From a virus (taxonomy: Duplodnaviria > Caudoviricetes), in IMG/VR virus record IMGVR_UViG_3300025267_002170: 64,000 nt of DNA; one strand, 5' to 3'. The position numbers were made by a program, and so were the translations under genes. Positions 248-10,801 of this stretch are shown here, piece by piece. The stretch's first letter is position 1; each line of letters opens with the position of its first letter. The notes below the pieces were generated by a model that saw nothing but the letters and a program-made list of their open reading frames with translations, had not been told where the DNA came from and did not search any database.

Positions 248-497
248 ATATTGGAACCTAGTATTCATTGAGCTAGATGAGACTACTGGTGGAGAGTGTG
301 ACTCTCCAGACACTAAGGGAAAAGAGATAAGAATATCAACAGATTTGCAGCGTGAAGAAGAACTAGAGGTAGTCATTCATGAACTCCTACACGCATCAGA
401 TTGGTCTAAGGACGAAGAGTGGGTTGAAGAAATAGCCCAAGACATATCTAATGTACTAATGAGACTAGGATGGAAAAAGAATGGAACCAAAACCTAA
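225..497 (+). CDS. small HExxH metallopeptidase-like phage protein
   Basis: VIHELLHA motif with downstream Glu. Confidence 0.55.
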   Translation: MRIKVGNKYWNLVFIELDETTGGECDSPDTKGKEIRISTDLQREEELEVVIHELLHASDWSKDEEWVEEIAQDISNVLMRLGWKKNGTKT

Positions 498-900
498 AAT
501 CGGATTCACCTGCTCCTGTTTTGACTTGCTTCACGCAGGGCATGTCGCTATGCTGGAGGAGGCTAAGAACAATTGCGAACATTTGATAGTCGGGTTGCAA
601 ATAGACCCGAGCCTAGAAAGGGATGGGAAAAGTAAACCCATACAGTCTCTAGTAGAAAGGCAGATACAGCTACGAGCCTGTAAATATGTTGACGAGATTA
701 TAGTATACAAAACAGAAAAAGATTTAAAGACAATACTAAAAACGCTACCAATAAACATAAGATTCTTAGGAGAGGAATATACAATAGAGAACTTTACTGG
801 AAAGAAACTGTGTAAAGAAAAAAGGATACGAATCTACTACAACAAGAGAAGGCATAAGTTTTCGTCTTCTGAATTGAAGGAAAGGATTAAAGATGTCTAG
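481..900 (+). CDS. glycerol-3-phosphate cytidylyltransferase-like (TagD family)
   Basis: FDLLHAGH (HIGH-type motif), ER..L...KYVDEI, terminal SSSELKER. Confidence 0.85.
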   Translation: MEPKPKIGFTCSCFDLLHAGHVAMLEEAKNNCEHLIVGLQIDPSLERDGKSKPIQSLVERQIQLRACKYVDEIIVYKTEKDLKTILKTLPINIRFLGEEYTIENFTGKKLCKEKRIRIYYNKRRHKFSSSELKERIKDV

Positions 901-5779: not shown

Positions 5780-6303
5780 TGGAAAATACTGGCATGGACT
5801 TAGGTTTATGGCCTGAATTTCTAATATTTGCCTTAATTTTTGGTTTTATTACTAGAATAATGTATGGAACATTATGTTCAATTTTTGGATGGATTGCGAG
5901 ACCTATCACAGACGTAGTGTGCCAAGAAAATTTTAGCAAACCTACTAATTTAGAGCCAATAACAAAAATCGAAGGTACTATCGAAATAGGAGTTGAAGAA
6001 GATAAAGAGATGCTTTCCGAGAGTGATTGGGATACAATATGCGCTCAAGCAGTTGAACAAGCTAAACAGGGAAATGCCAGTGCGCGTAATTGGGTAACTA
6101 AGAACATTCTAGAAAAGGAATCTGAAAAGTTAGTTGCAGACGAATTGAAAACTGATGTAACTATAGTCTCCGAAACTGTTGAAGCCTTAGTATCTTTAGG
6201 ATGGAAAAAGGGAGATGCTACCAAAGAAGTTAAGGAGGCTGCCTGTGCAAAAGAATACAAATCAGTGGAAGACCTGTTAGTATTCATTCACAAGAAAAAA
6301 TAG
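5779..6303 (+). CDS. membrane protein with C-terminal RuvA-domain-III-like helical module
   Basis: N-terminal TM; ETVEALVSLGWKKGDA resembles RuvA EA..AL..LG(Y/F). Confidence 0.45.
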   Translation: MENTGMDLGLWPEFLIFALIFGFITRIMYGTLCSIFGWIARPITDVVCQENFSKPTNLEPITKIEGTIEIGVEEDKEMLSESDWDTICAQAVEQAKQGNASARNWVTKNILEKESEKLVADELKTDVTIVSETVEALVSLGWKKGDATKEVKEAACAKEYKSVEDLLVFIHKKK

Positions 6304-6311
6304 TTTTACTC

Positions 6312-6352
6312 GGGGCGCGAAGGTTATTATACTTTCGCGCCTCTTTTTTTTT
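6312..6352 (+). terminator. Rho-independent terminator
   Basis: GGGGCGCGAAGG / CTTTCGCGCCTC followed by T9. Confidence 0.85.
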
Positions 6353-6365
6353 AGAAAGTAAGAAA

Positions 6366-6926
6366 ATGAACAGACTAAAGGGGATGACCTGTTACCTATG
6401 CGGACCTATGGACAGGGTTAGCGATGGCGGGGTAAAGTGGAGACAGGACATAACCCCTCAACTAAAAGACATTGGGGTTGGCGTACTAGACCCATGCGAT
6501 AAACCAAGTAACTATGCAACAGAAGACCATAACACTAGACAAACAATTGACTCCTACAAGGAAGAAGGCGACTTTGATTCTATATCAAATATAATGAAAC
6601 CGATATGTGCAGTCGACCTTAGAATGGTTGACATAGCACACTTCCTAGTTGTTAATCTTGACATAGATGTTCATATGTGTGGGTCATATCATGAAATGTT
6701 TGTAGCTCTAGGACAGAAAAAACCAGTTCTAATAAGGTGTGTAGGAGGCAAAGAGATGTTGCCAAACTGGATGTTTGGGGTTCTTCCGCACGAAATGGTA
6801 TTTACTAACTGGTTTCAGTTAATGGATTACCTCTATCATGTAAATAATGACGAGGTAGTTGAGCATTACAACAGATGGAGGTTTTTCGACTTCGATAAGG
6901 TCTATGGAAAGAGGAGTATTACCTAA
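6366..6926 (+). CDS. nucleoside 2-deoxyribosyltransferase-like protein
   Basis: YLCGPM, DLRMVD, GSYHE..A...KKPV. Confidence 0.7.
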   Translation: MNRLKGMTCYLCGPMDRVSDGGVKWRQDITPQLKDIGVGVLDPCDKPSNYATEDHNTRQTIDSYKEEGDFDSISNIMKPICAVDLRMVDIAHFLVVNLDIDVHMCGSYHEMFVALGQKKPVLIRCVGGKEMLPNWMFGVLPHEMVFTNWFQLMDYLYHVNNDEVVEHYNRWRFFDFDKVYGKRSIT

Positions 6927-7171: not shown

Positions 7172-7399
7172 ATGTTTATCTACGAATCCGAATCAACCGA
7201 TGGAAATATAGATGTTCAAACAAGGGCTTTCTATATTGAGGAAGACGGAATCGTATCAGTTAATCAGTATCTATTCAGAGGTCAAGAAGTTCTATCTTGT
7301 TCTCAAATAGATATTACTATAGAACATTTAGATAAAATAGTAGCGATAGCAAACCATGCAAGATTAAAAGATTTCTATAAGAAATACAATGTTGAGTAG
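7172..7399 (+). CDS. hypothetical protein
   Basis: ORF in tightly packed run. Confidence 0.5.
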   Translation: MFIYESESTDGNIDVQTRAFYIEEDGIVSVNQYLFRGQEVLSCSQIDITIEHLDKIVAIANHARLKDFYKKYNVE

Positions 7400-7703
7400 G
7401 CAAACGGTTATATATGGGTTACTATGGCTGTTTATAGGAATGGCCTCATCTTTTGATTTATACTTAGCTGTTGCTAACTGTCACGAACTAAAAGACATAG
7501 AGCAAAACCCTGTTGGGACGTGGCTCATAGACCTCGACGACGGCGGGATAGGGCTATTCATGGGCCTGAAAATGGCCGGTACGGTAACGGCGCTGGGAAT
7601 TCTCGTACTTCTCTACCACCTAAAAAGAAAATGGGCGTGGATTATACTGTACACATTGTCTCTGGGGCAGGTTTTGCTGATACTATACCTAGTCCTTGCA
7701 TAA
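7389..7703 (+). CDS. 3-TM membrane protein (DUF5658-like)
   Basis: hydrophobic helices with D..L and E.NP motifs. Confidence 0.5.
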   Translation: MLSRQTVIYGLLWLFIGMASSFDLYLAVANCHELKDIEQNPVGTWLIDLDDGGIGLFMGLKMAGTVTALGILVLLYHLKRKWAWIILYTLSLGQVLLILYLVLA

Positions 7704-7723
7704 AAAAAATTCCGAAATTTTGG

Positions 7724-7754
7724 TTGACATCGGCCCGAAAATATGCTATATAAT
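7724..7754 (+). promoter_or_regulatory. host sigma70-type promoter
   Basis: TTGACA at 7724; TGC-TATATA at 17 bp or TATAAT at 19 bp; A-tract upstream; GAGGAGG RBS downstream. Confidence 0.65.
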
Positions 7755-7789
7755 AGAGTATTACCACAGGTTCTCACGAGGAGGAACAA

Positions 7790-8110
7790 ATGATGACAGA
7801 AACTCTATTTCTAATGACGCTGGCTCAAACTAGAAAGGCTTATAACTGGTCTACGGAAGGAAAGACCATTGTTGGTGTAGCCAAGAACGGAAAGGCGAGG
7901 GGTGCAAAGTATGCTCCCATCACAGCCGTATGCAGGTATGCCGGGAAGGGAACAAACCCTTCGACCAAGCGCGGAGCAACTAAAGCTGGTAAGCAGTTGG
8001 GAATGACACCAACACTTACTAAGAATGTCTCAAATGCAACCGAAGCAACCTCGAACCGAGGCAACTCTCAAGTTTTGAGAGGTAAGATTAAGCAGGTTTT
8101 GGGTATATGA
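7790..8110 (+). CDS. basic hypothetical (probable early) protein
   Basis: strong RBS; K/R/T-rich 106 aa. Confidence 0.65.
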   Translation: MMTETLFLMTLAQTRKAYNWSTEGKTIVGVAKNGKARGAKYAPITAVCRYAGKGTNPSTKRGATKAGKQLGMTPTLTKNVSNATEATSNRGNSQVLRGKIKQVLGI

Positions 8111-8150
8111 TACGGAGGCCAGTGTTCTAATTTTGAGACGGAGAAAAAGG

Positions 8151-8240
8151 GTGGTCAAACAATTGTTACTGTTTGATTATGAAGAAGAAGACTCAGATGA
8201 GTCGAAAGAGGAAACTAACGAAAGCGAGGAAGAAGAATGA
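8151..8240 (+). CDS. 29-aa acidic micro-peptide with QLLLF clamp-binding-like motif (not in ORF track)
   Basis: GGAG then GTG; MVKQLLLFDYEEEDSDESKEETNESEEEE; TGA overlaps ssb ATG. Confidence 0.55.
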   Translation: MVKQLLLFDYEEEDSDESKEETNESEEEE

Positions 8241-8608
8241 ACATTAACAGTGTGGTCTTGGCTGGAAATCTTACTAAAGACCCAGACCTAAGAGAGACAA
8301 AGACAGGTACTAAGGTTTGTGGAATGAGAATGGCTACAAACCATAAGCGAGGGAAGAATGAGGAAACCTTGTTTATGGATGTGACTGTTTGGGGTCCACA
8401 AGCAGAAATCTGTGAGAGATATCTCAAGAAGGGTCGTAATATTGCAGTCAAGGGAAGATTGAAGATGGAAGAGTATACTGACAAAGACGATATTCGTCGT
8501 CAGTCAGTGTCAGTTGTTGCGGAGGATGTTCAATTCGGACCCAACACATCAGGCAGTAACTCTGAGACACCCGTAGAAGCAGCAACAGAAGAAGTGGCTC
8601 CTTTTTAA
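8237..8608 (+). CDS. ssb: single-stranded DNA-binding protein #1
   Basis: NSVVLAGNLTKDP, VWGPQAE, acidic tail ending APF. Confidence 0.93.
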   Translation: MNINSVVLAGNLTKDPDLRETKTGTKVCGMRMATNHKRGKNEETLFMDVTVWGPQAEICERYLKKGRNIAVKGRLKMEEYTDKDDIRRQSVSVVAEDVQFGPNTSGSNSETPVEAATEEVAPF

Positions 8609-8626
8609 TTGTTTAGGAGAAGGTTG

Positions 8627-8986
8627 ATGAATAAGTTTGTTGGTGTTTGTGTAGCTATTTTGTCACTCTCTGTTATTGGTGAGGCAACCGCCTGTGACGA
8701 ATGTTACGGAGAGTGGAGGGTAGTTTCTTCCCCACTTCTGGTGAGAAGCAATCATCGTGACTGCACTCTTACTTGGAGAAAGGGGAGAGTAAGTCTAGTA
8801 ACTATTGACGGATTCTGCCTCGTTAAGAAGGTGGGAAAAGGAGTCAATAGAGGGTTTAGAAAAGCAGGGAAAGCACTTCATGATAACTTCTGTCTGTGTC
8901 CACAGCATAGAAGGAAGGGACTGTTTAATCCCCCTGCTTTAAGGCGTGTTCCTATCATCGGTAGGATTCGTCTATTCCGCGACTAA
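8627..8986 (+). CDS. secreted Cys-rich basic protein
   Basis: AGGAG RBS; signal-peptide-like N-terminus ending ATA. Confidence 0.5.
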   Translation: MNKFVGVCVAILSLSVIGEATACDECYGEWRVVSSPLLVRSNHRDCTLTWRKGRVSLVTIDGFCLVKKVGKGVNRGFRKAGKALHDNFCLCPQHRRKGLFNPPALRRVPIIGRIRLFRD

Positions 8987-8992
8987 CCTCGT

Positions 8993-9056
8993 GGAGCGGT
9001 CTGGGCAATTGGGTCGCTGGTTTACCAGAGATGTTCGAGTCATCACAGAGCGCTTT
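8993..9056 (+). ncRNA. miniature tRNA-like cloverleaf lacking a normal anticodon arm
   Basis: closing stem GGAGCGGTCTG/CAGAGCGCTTT; GGC-AATTGG-GTC D-like arm; CTGG-TTTA-CCAG; GATG-TTCGAGT-CATC T arm. Confidence 0.55.
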
Positions 9057-9390
9057 AGTTAGATGGTTGCTGTAGTATCCGGCTAAAAAACGGGTTCAGG
9101 GATATACTTTGAGTCACTGTCTCAGGTTTGACCGTTCACCAGAGCAGAGCTACAGGAACAAGGTAGGTAACAATAGTTACCGAAGGACTTGGCCATTACT
9201 CCCTATTGGGGTGCGCACGCAGTCTTTACCACCAGACTGTGCCATAGGTTTATGCTTAAGAAGCGAGTGCGTTGGTTATATTTAGCCAAATTAGCTTCTT
9301 TACAGGCGTAAATCGGTTCTGAATCTCATCCAGCTTGTCTCCTTCCGGTCCTTCCCCTCTCTTTGGGAACGCACCTAAAAGGGTGGGTCC
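9057..9390 (+). ncRNA. candidate large structured ncRNA, family not recognised
   Basis: longest stretch with no recognisable gene; many nested helices with G-U pairs favouring + strand. Confidence 0.55.
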
Positions 9391-9393
9391 GCA

Positions 9394-9846
9394 ATGTCGA
9401 AAATCCTAGACCGTTCTATCGAGATTGCCTATCAATTGTTCCCAACAGCGTATGAAAAGAAAAAAGGCTACCGGGCTTTCCACTTTGCTTTCGGATGGAA
9501 GAAGCGCAGGCTTCTAGCTATAGGCCAGAACGACACTTATAACCAAAGCGCGAAAGCTCTGTGGTTTGCTAAGAGGTTCAACAACAAAAAGCAAATCACC
9601 TACCCATTTCTACACGCTGAAGTAGACCTAGTCAGCAAACTGTGGGGAAAGATTTATGTTGATAATTCTGTTAAAGTTGTAGTATTAAGAATAAACAGTA
9701 GGGGAGAGTTGCAAAATAGCAAGCCGTGTAAGTCGTGTATGAATATGATTTCCGTTCTTGGGATTGATAAGGTCTGGTGGTCAGTCTCGACTGGAGATAT
9801 AGTTTCTTTACATGAGCAGGGGATTTATAACAATGGGGATGAGTGA
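9394..9846 (+). CDS. Zn-dependent cytidine/nucleotide deaminase-superfamily protein (not the dCMP deaminase)
   Basis: LHAEV and SKPCKSC motifs. Confidence 0.75.
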   Translation: MSKILDRSIEIAYQLFPTAYEKKKGYRAFHFAFGWKKRRLLAIGQNDTYNQSAKALWFAKRFNNKKQITYPFLHAEVDLVSKLWGKIYVDNSVKVVVLRINSRGELQNSKPCKSCMNMISVLGIDKVWWSVSTGDIVSLHEQGIYNNGDE

Positions 9847-10801
9847 TATTATACTTAAGCTGGATGTTCTTGGAAAGGGAATATTGGCAGCGGACGAAAG
9901 CATTCCGACCATAAAGAGTCGGTTTGAATCAGTGAGTATAACCTCAACGCCAGAGACCAGACACGATTATCGTCATACAATCTTTTCAACTAAGGGACTG
10001 CAAGAGTTTATAAGCGGGGTAATTCTTTTTGATGAAACTATCAACAATGAAGCAACAATTAAACCCTTGATTGATTCCAAAATAGCGCTTGGAATCAAGG
10101 TTGACACCGGAGCGAAGCCATACAACTCTCACATGCAGGGGGAGAGGTTCACAGAGGGTCTTGACGGCCTCTCAGAGCGTCTCAGGGGCTACAAAAGGCT
10201 CGGAGCCGAGTTCGCCAAGTGGAGGACGGTTCTGGCCCCAAAGACAACTGTTAATTGCTTAAGAGCAAACGCTAACGCTCTTGCTATTTATGCAAAAAAG
10301 TGTCAGAAAGAGGGTATAGTTCCCATAATAGAACCAGAAATTCTAATGGATGGAAACCACGGCGCTCTTAAGTCCTTTAATATCACTGAACACTGTCTTC
10401 ACTGTGTTTTTCATGAACTATGGAAAGAGAGGGTAGAGCTTGAGAGTATTATACTCAAGCCGAACATGGTGGTTTCTGGTTACAAGAATGAAAAAAGAAT
10501 TCGACCGGAGGTTGTTGCGGAACTAACAATAGCTTGCTTTAAGAGAACGGTTCCGTCTGCTGTTCCTATTATTGCTTTTCTTAGTGGTGGACAACCAAAT
10601 GATGAGTCTGTACAAAACCTTAATGCTATGAATCAGGAGTCTCCTGATTTGTTTCATTCTTGGTATTTAACATTTTCGTTCGGTAGAGAGCTACAGAAAA
10701 GCGCTCTAAAACAATGGTCGCTTGGTCATAAAGACGAAGCACAAAAACAACTTTTAAAGAAGGCGAAAGATTGCAGTAACGCTACATGGGGTGAACTGTG
10801 A
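9839..10801 (+). CDS. class I fructose-bisphosphate aldolase
   Basis: GKGILAADES, IKVDTG, FAKWR, PIIEPE, LKPNMV (Schiff-base Lys), FLSGGQ, TFSFGR; start uncertain (9812/9833/9839). Confidence 0.92.
   Translation: MSDIILKLDVLGKGILAADESIPTIKSRFESVSITSTPETRHDYRHTIFSTKGLQEFISGVILFDETINNEATIKPLIDSKIALGIKVDTGAKPYNSHMQGERFTEGLDGLSERLRGYKRLGAEFAKWRTVLAPKTTVNCLRANANALAIYAKKCQKEGIVPIIEPEILMDGNHGALKSFNITEHCLHCVFHELWKERVELESIILKPNMVVSGYKNEKRIRPEVVAELTIACFKRTVPSAVPIIAFLSGGQPNDESVQNLNAMNQESPDLFHSWYLTFSFGRELQKSALKQWSLGHKDEAQKQLLKKAKDCSNATWGEL

Follow-up and report, generated by a model that had tools for sequence, protein, structure and literature searches.

The tRNA cluster of phage T4 contains two small stable RNAs, species 1 and species 2 (rnaC and rnaD), whose function is unknown and which are released by tRNA-processing enzymes. 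They are much smaller than the RNA described here and are not known to be related to it in sequence. GOLLD and ROOL are large RNAs that often belong to phages or prophages and lie there beside tRNA genes, with which they may be co-transcribed; the mean length of ROOL is 581 nt (PMC5737381). The t-elements of plant mitochondria resemble tRNAs without having the canonical structure and possess a conserved T arm; they were discovered with the T-arm motif that was also employed here. They sit in long transcripts in which cutting by RNase P and RNase Z generates the ends of the neighbouring RNAs (PMC1920247). In YrlA a tRNA-like domain is placed within a larger protein-binding RNA, and this family also occurs in phages (PMC4201824).

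We have analysed a 64,000-nt stretch of phage DNA (the window), which is part of a 119-kb IMG/VR virus record estimated to be 79% complete. A sequence-only reading of the window had proposed that the segment 9057–9390 carries no recognisable gene and encodes a highly structured RNA belonging to a new class. The gap in which this segment lies does hold a structured non-coding RNA on the + strand. Directly ahead of it is a tRNA-derived module, and the two together resemble several of the systems mentioned above without matching any of them.

The locus and the families with which it was compared

The phage encodes a split Pol III alpha, DnaB, RecA, a class II-type ribonucleotide reductase and a class I aldolase, together with two tRNAs and a one-piece tmRNA. 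No close cultured phage was found, the best Pol III match being 34% identical. The genes for tRNA-Ile, tmRNA and tRNA-Arg, identified with ARAGORN and Rfam, lie within 3 kb of the RNA and on the same strand, with the tmRNA (RF00023; 11218–11555) 1.9 kb downstream. This tmRNA is 80% identical, with 22 gapped positions, to a copy in the strain L019 (5403–5744), where the adjoining tRNA genes are 99–100% identical. ARAGORN calls the L019 copy a permuted tmRNA with an odd tag, and its Rfam score is 130 bits.

Upstream of the RNA, an SSB gene (8237–8608) is followed by ORF125 (8609–8986, + strand), for which no Pfam or NCBIfam match was obtained. Homologues of ORF125 occur only in the same phage lineage, apart from one at 67% identity in a more distant lineage represented by contigs L053 and L054; there, the tRNA-like module and the RNA again come directly after it. 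The downstream neighbour (9394–9846, + strand) encodes a 150-residue protein with a cytidine-deaminase-type fold. Its match to Pfam PF00383 (E = 5.5e-4) falls below the cut-off. The AlphaFold model has a pLDDT of 89.6, and a Foldseek comparison places it at a TM score of about 0.5 from dCMP, cytidine, blasticidin-S and tRNA deaminases alike, with none standing out. On the basis of this model the neighbour is predicted to have a generic cytidine-deaminase fold without a closer subfamily.

The gap between these two genes (8987–9393; 407 nt) has a G+C content of 49%, compared with 42% for the genome, and contains no ORF of at least 60 residues. When the gap is aligned with a homologue that is 87% identical (L002), identity by phase is 87.4, 85.9 and 89.6%, that is without codon periodicity; in the flanking genes the corresponding values are 92–98% at codon positions 1 and 2 and 67–87% at position 3. 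Two ORFs of 58 and 40 residues within the gap are disrupted in L002 by two 1-nt deletions. The absence of periodicity and the frame-shifting indels rule out a protein-coding gene, in agreement with the sequence-only reading.

Comparison of the window with the 4227 families of Rfam at gathering score gave no match in the gap, and there was none at E ≤ 10 in the segment 8850–9500. The families so covered include tmRNA, tRNA, intron and mobile-element RNAs, and none of the cis-regulatory models (riboswitches and leaders) match. An RNase P RNA was considered and rejected: the model does not match, and the only P4-like candidate (9182/9348) is unconserved and lies outside the closing helix. We conclude that the proposal of a new structured RNA class holds in part. 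The RNA is structured, covaries and falls outside Rfam; 'class', however, is too strong a word for something found in one narrow lineage. We would place it as a new family among the structured phage RNAs linked to tRNA genes, which are a known kind. Newness is set here against the families of Rfam.

With GOLLD (RF01998) and ROOL (RF03087) our RNA shares its nature, a multi-helix non-coding RNA in a phage, and its context, with tRNA genes within 3 kb. It differs in matching neither covariance model at gathering score or at E ≤ 10, in being about half their size or less (280–345 nt), in having no conserved pseudoknot that we could find and in being known from one phage lineage only, whereas GOLLD and ROOL span several phyla. 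The tRNA-derived module (8993–9056) has the same build as a t-element and occupies the same position between a message and the next RNA: where two RNAs meet, it forms a tRNA-like but non-canonical fold whose T arm is conserved. Unlike the t-elements, however, it has an 11-bp closing stem, occurs in a phage and neighbours a structured RNA rather than an mRNA, and its cleavage is only inferred. YrlA likewise combines a tRNA-like part, with a T arm, with a larger non-coding RNA, but no Y RNA family matches at E ≤ 10 and the core is far larger than, and distinct from, a single Ro-binding stem. The 119-kb record (79% complete) gave no match to a Ro60/TROVE gene in a search to which control genomes respond, nor any match to an RtcB gene. 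Finally, the tmRNA of the same phage also joins a tRNA-like part to a long structured part. In tmRNA the tRNA-like part is split between the two ends; in our RNA it is contiguous at the 5′ end, and it lacks both a tag reading frame and a CCA and does not match the tmRNA model.

Architecture of the RNA and of the tRNA-derived module

The core (9057–9335, + strand) comprises about 280 nt arranged in two domains with 13 helices and is closed by the long-range helix P1 (9057–9065/9327–9335). The segment 9057–9183 carries the 5′ strand of P1 and the 5′ domain, which is a long irregular hairpin followed by a short one. The long hairpin is built from H2 (9066–9084/9143–9159), H3 (9089–9093/9132–9136), H4 (9096–9104/9118–9126) and H5 (9106–9108/9112–9114), and the short one is H6 (9166–9171/9176–9181). 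All of these belong to the consensus fold. The 3′ domain, with the 3′ strand of P1 (9184–9335), is a three-way junction closed by H7 (9184–9189/9315–9320). Its arms are H8/H9 (9192–9193/9215–9216 and 9197–9203/9208–9213), H10 (9218–9225/9234–9241) and a stack of H11 (9247–9256/9305–9314), H12 (9261–9269/9292–9300) and H13 (9273–9278/9283–9288).

The five nested sets of helices noted in the sequence-only reading are all found where that reading had placed them and all form part of the consensus fold. Its remark that G-U pairs fit the + strand is likewise borne out, with 13 of the 91 consensus pairs being G-U. Folding energies compared with those of dinucleotide shuffles point to the same strand. 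For the whole 407 nt the z score is -2.2 on the + strand and +0.68 on the - strand; for 9183–9325 the values are -3.75, with none of 200 shuffles as good, and +0.18. The difference is smaller for 9057–9185 (-2.1 and -1.8) and for the module region 8990–9060 (-2.3 and -1.3).

One proposed element did not survive. The long-range pairing GAAGGAC/GTCCTTC (9182/9348), suggested to be a pseudoknot or alternative fold, loses two of its seven pairs in L002 and reaches into the variable spacer beyond the core; it also competes with H7, which is kept by way of a G-U to G-C change.

This spacer (9336–9393) is C/U-rich and variable, and ends in a conserved CACCTAA..GGGTGG segment in which the deaminase-like gene probably has its ribosome-binding site, the GGGTGG stretch lying 8–9 nt ahead of the ATG at 9394. 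The spacer folds on a par with shuffled sequence (z = -0.54) and is the fastest-changing stretch of the locus. Over 9341–9393 it is 81% identical to L002 and 79% identical to L032, from which it differs at 11 of 53 positions even though the flanking genes of L032 are 99–100% identical to those of the window. For this reason we place the 3′ limit of the constrained RNA ahead of the spacer. The module (3 of 69 positions) and the core (7 of 284) also differ from L032 by more than the flanks do, and the excess over spacer, module and core may reflect a patch of local recombination or fast evolution.

The module (8993–9056, + strand) begins 7 nt past the stop codon of ORF125. Its 11-bp closing stem (8993–9003/9046–9056), with one G-G mismatch, encloses a D-like hairpin (9004–9015), a mini hairpin of 4 bp with a 4-nt loop (9017–9028) and a T arm with the loop TTCGAGT (9030–9044). 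We scanned both strands of the whole 119-kb genome for a T-arm pattern consisting of G-TTCRANY-C on a stem of at least 4 bp. There were four matches: tRNA-Ile, tmRNA, tRNA-Arg and the module at 9030–9044. In the loci of relatives the same scan matches only tRNA or tmRNA genes or tmRNA-type T arms. Since tRNA-type T arms are otherwise restricted to tRNA and tmRNA genes, we regard the module as tRNA-derived. Judged against the features of tRNA (RF00005), the T arm has the TTCRANY loop closed by G-C, but the cloverleaf is lacking, with a stem of 11 bp rather than 7 and an 'anticodon' arm of 4 bp with a 4-nt loop. The module also has no CCA and no 2-nt linker. Neither ARAGORN nor the Rfam tRNA model calls it, the latter giving no tRNA match in 8850–9500 at E ≤ 10. 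The module is a tRNA derivative that is unable to decode.

An intron-interrupted or permuted tRNA was also considered and rejected: the closing stem, with both its strands, and the T arm all lie 5′ of the core, and 3′ of it there is no complementary acceptor strand.

The sequence-only reading had placed a tRNA-like element directly ahead of the RNA, and comparison with the distant lineage upholds this. In L053, the module of which was misaligned by MAFFT and had to be aligned by hand, the T arm is identical, and the closing stem covaries (TCTG/CAGA to TCTCA/TGAGA) with loss of the mismatch. The D-like and mini hairpins are replaced there by a single hairpin; in L002 the mini hairpin shows a U-A to G-C change. 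By these alignments, it is the closing stem and the T arm of the module that stay constant across lineages.

Distribution of the RNA and selection on its base pairing

All homologues come from marine metagenomes, and the RNA is carried by only three sublineages of one phage group. Close haplotypes are 87–98% identical and comprise the L002 type (87% over the gap), the L032 type (95%), further types and recombinants. L037 resembles a recombinant of two haplotypes. In the distant lineage (L053/L054) the RNA is about 79% identical and only the module and the first 126 nt of the core are present. These two contigs are independent assemblies that end at one and the same position, where the GGCAAC-AATA-GTTGCC hairpin (H6) finishes, which suggests either an assembly break at a palindrome or a strain junction. 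The 3′ half was sought by way of homologues of the deaminase-like gene and of ORF125 (P0040, P0003 and P0063), and these led to other contexts or to contigs that were too short.

Wider searches returned the same group of phages. A blastn search of 50,697 phage records gave no match to the RNA, and the genome contains no second copy of it and no repeats. A covariance model of 9057–9340 (R1) detected the RNA only in the record of L002 and in none of 14 other related IMG/VR records, including a complete 161-kb genome; with the filters switched off it gave no match in the syntenic loci of relatives. Exact-word scans of IMG/VR with four sequence blocks recovered only the contig of L002 or chance matches, a scan of JGI metagenomes gave the same lineages and three chance matches in coding DNA, and two scans of 185,579 GTDB genomes gave a single chance match, in a gene of a Methylophagaceae MAG. 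Homologues of the RNA thus exist, and in these searches all of them came from one phage lineage. That lineage is common in the ocean, since 178 blocks of the contig collection index one haplotype of a neighbouring gene, on contigs as long as about 140 kb.

The block of small peptide, SSB, ORF125, module and RNA is missing from more distant relatives, in which the aldolase gene directly adjoins the homologue of the ORF at 7790–8110; their SSB is a different gene located elsewhere and is 22–25% identical. Because the two genes are adjacent in these relatives, we take the block (8133–9393) to be an insertion in the present lineage. In L020, a relative with neither a detectable tmRNA nor tRNA-Ile near its aldolase gene, there are ORF-free gaps of 437 nt (6186–6622) and 550 nt (7205–7754), and neither has a match to Rfam or to R1.

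The pairing itself appears to be under selection. Among eight haplotypes 99.6% of 674 pair cells are paired, compared with 31–43% when the partners are slid, and four pairs have changed on both sides, compared with none or one. In a cleaned set of 14 haplotypes 18 of 1153 pair cells are unpaired; this count leaves out a spurious row of alignment A9, an inverted duplicate from the start of L075. That contig bears an inverted partial copy of the RNA (1–223, - strand) besides the one at 387–670 (+ strand), and the inverted copy is most likely a hairpin-type assembly artefact. Pair 9070–9155 is seen as CG, UA, UG and AU, pair 9072–9153 as GC and AU, pair 9103–9119 as UG, UA and CG, pair 9168–9179 as UA and CG, and pair 9171–9176 as CG and UA.

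The 5′ domain was tested independently, with a structure derived only from the window and L002 and then scored with 26 substitutions of L053. Nine pairs are changed, of which three are double compensations, and two are broken, against 8.6 broken in the null (P = 0.0006). Folded alone, L053 adopts the same 5′-domain architecture. For the 3′ domain, the minimum-energy fold of the window was scored with 14 substitutions of L002: seven pairs are changed and one is broken, compared with 4.5 in the null (P = 0.012). Seven haplotypes folded separately display the same three-armed 3′ layout, with the H8/H9 arm pairing differently in L002. Changes in this domain are mostly one-sided (G-U to G-C or A-U), with no double compensation, and pairs at helix ends are broken in some haplotypes (9249–9312, 9256–9305 and 9273–9288). 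A two-sequence covariation test in which the structure comes from one of the two sequences is weak (P = 0.07–0.10); adding the third lineage is what made the result convincing. These comparisons suggest that the fold is well supported in the 5′ domain and moderately supported in the 3′ domain, the latter being weaker because only one-sided changes and a few broken helix-end pairs are found there. The sample behind these tests is three sublineages of one phage group, too narrow for statistics of the R-scape type.

The level of conservation is also informative. The RNA is 79.4% identical to that of L053, against 68–70% for the flanking 1.4–2.4 kb. The core is 89.7% identical to L002; in the same comparison third codon positions reach 67–87%, and a neutral gap 70%.

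Proposed release of the RNA, its possible action and alternative explanations

Our preferred explanation, which we hold tentatively and with slightly more doubt than belief, is that a stable + strand RNA is cut from a polycistronic transcript by tRNA-processing enzymes, which would act at the tRNA-like handle, and that it then functions in trans. The signal scan detected no sigma-70-like site on the + strand in 7500–9800 and no terminator-like site in 7500–10545. As the locus lacks a promoter or terminator of its own, the RNA is probably co-transcribed with the small peptide, SSB and ORF125 upstream, and the same transcript would carry the deaminase-like gene, aldolase, tRNA-Ile, tmRNA and tRNA-Arg downstream. 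The tRNAs and the tmRNA on such a transcript would have to be excised by host tRNA-processing enzymes. We infer that the module may serve the same enzymes as a cutting handle that frees the core, because a stem with a T arm, 7 nt past a stop codon and abutting the next RNA, is the layout of a t-element (PMC1920247). RNase P would cut on the 5′ side of the module and RNase Z or RNase E on the 3′ side. [quoted passage not shown] Recognition by RNase P and RNase Z is uncertain owing to the 11-bp stem, the absence of a CCA and of a 2-nt linker, and the loss of the D-like arm in L053. That the released RNA would act in trans is speculative. Its position among tRNA and tmRNA genes would make a host factor concerned with tRNAs or ribosomes the most plausible target. 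Computed duplex energies of the core with the phage tmRNA, the tRNAs and the tRNA-like module are on a par with those of shuffled sequence.

Module and core might instead stay joined as one RNA of about 345 nt, with the T-arm module docking a tRNA-binding partner rather than marking a site of cutting. The partner could be the ribosome, a tRNA-modifying or CCA-adding enzyme or a tRNA-targeting defence nuclease, and the RNA would be tmRNA-like or Y-RNA-like. The closing stems of module and core are separated by 0–1 nt (9056/9057) and could stack, none of the three lineages has one part without the other, within a changing module the T arm stays invariant, and YrlA offers a precedent for a tRNA-like domain within a larger protein-binding RNA (PMC4201824). 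We nevertheless consider this unlikely given that no Rfam family matches, tmRNA and Y RNA included, that the 119-kb, 79% complete record has no Ro60/TROVE or RtcB gene, that a D-like arm to form the tRNA elbow is lost in L053 and that no tag reading frame is present. A bolder form, in which T-arm module and core make up a new phage RNA effector, rather than a by-product of the tRNA operon, that docks on a host machine able to read the tRNA shape, is more doubtful still. That machine would be the ribosome, RNase P, the CCA-adding enzyme or a defence nuclease, and it is with similarly small expectation that we picture the 280-nt body blocking, redirecting or catalysing once docked. The RNA could also be a cis-acting leader of the deaminase-like gene, and of the aldolase gene behind it, that controls their translation or stability. 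No terminator intervenes between the RNA and the ATG at 9394, a conserved CACC ahead of the GGGTGG stretch is complementary to it, and the stretch could pair as well with the ACCACC loop of H10, which is likewise conserved. Complementarities of 5–6 bp are, however, within chance, the spacer that would couple the RNA to the gene changes fastest and folds no better than chance, homologues of the deaminase-like gene in related phages do without the RNA, and some 350 nt with 13 helices is far above the size of known leaders; we judge a leader to be improbable, to the same degree as a joined RNA.

Decay and DNA-level function are the remaining explanations to be weighed. The narrow distribution, the absence of the whole block in more distant relatives and the instability of the module interior between lineages would suit a functionless remnant, left for instance by a tRNA gene, a tmRNA gene or a mobile element brought in with the insertion of SSB and ORF125. 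A decaying sequence would hardly be better conserved than the adjoining coding DNA in the distant lineage (79% against 68–70%), nor would its substitutions keep pairing far above chance, and no tmRNA, tRNA, intron or mobile-element RNA family is matched; we find such a remnant very unlikely. An element acting as DNA, such as a replication origin, a single-strand initiation site or a packaging site, might be suspected from the adjoining SSB gene and the many hairpins. Against it stand the G-U pairs, which account for 13 of 91 on the + strand only, the many G-U to G-C or A-U changes, a - strand that folds no better than shuffles, the lack of repeats, iterons or AT-richness and the presence of a tRNA-type T arm. 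We give this possibility hardly any credence.

It had been proposed as a possibility that the RNA and the deaminase-like gene form one functional unit, and this our comparison does not sustain. In related phages, homologues of the deaminase-like gene (47–62% identical) are immediately preceded by an ORF or by other sequence, with no R1 match beside them. As the more distant relatives have the gene without the RNA, the two are no obligate unit; the spacer between them is, moreover, the fastest to change, and a functional pairing is unlikely. The deaminase-like gene lies within the RNA-gene block in every relative examined (L022–L026), downstream of the tmRNA in relatives and upstream of the aldolase gene here. 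In L060 (1–280), what lies ahead of a homologue at 64% identity is a terminator-like hairpin and a TTGACA-type promoter, not the RNA.

Big folded RNAs of no known job are rare, and several have opened new biochemistry. The RNA described here is common in ocean metagenomes, is joined to a tRNA-derived handle and is encoded by a phage with its own tmRNA and tRNAs. Its narrow distribution bounds the generality of any result. Cutting of the handle by RNase P or RNase Z would show that phages use tRNA look-alikes as punctuation that releases other RNAs, a use documented so far mainly in organelles. If the RNA acts on the translation or tRNA machinery of the host, the known repertoire of phages would gain an RNA effector.
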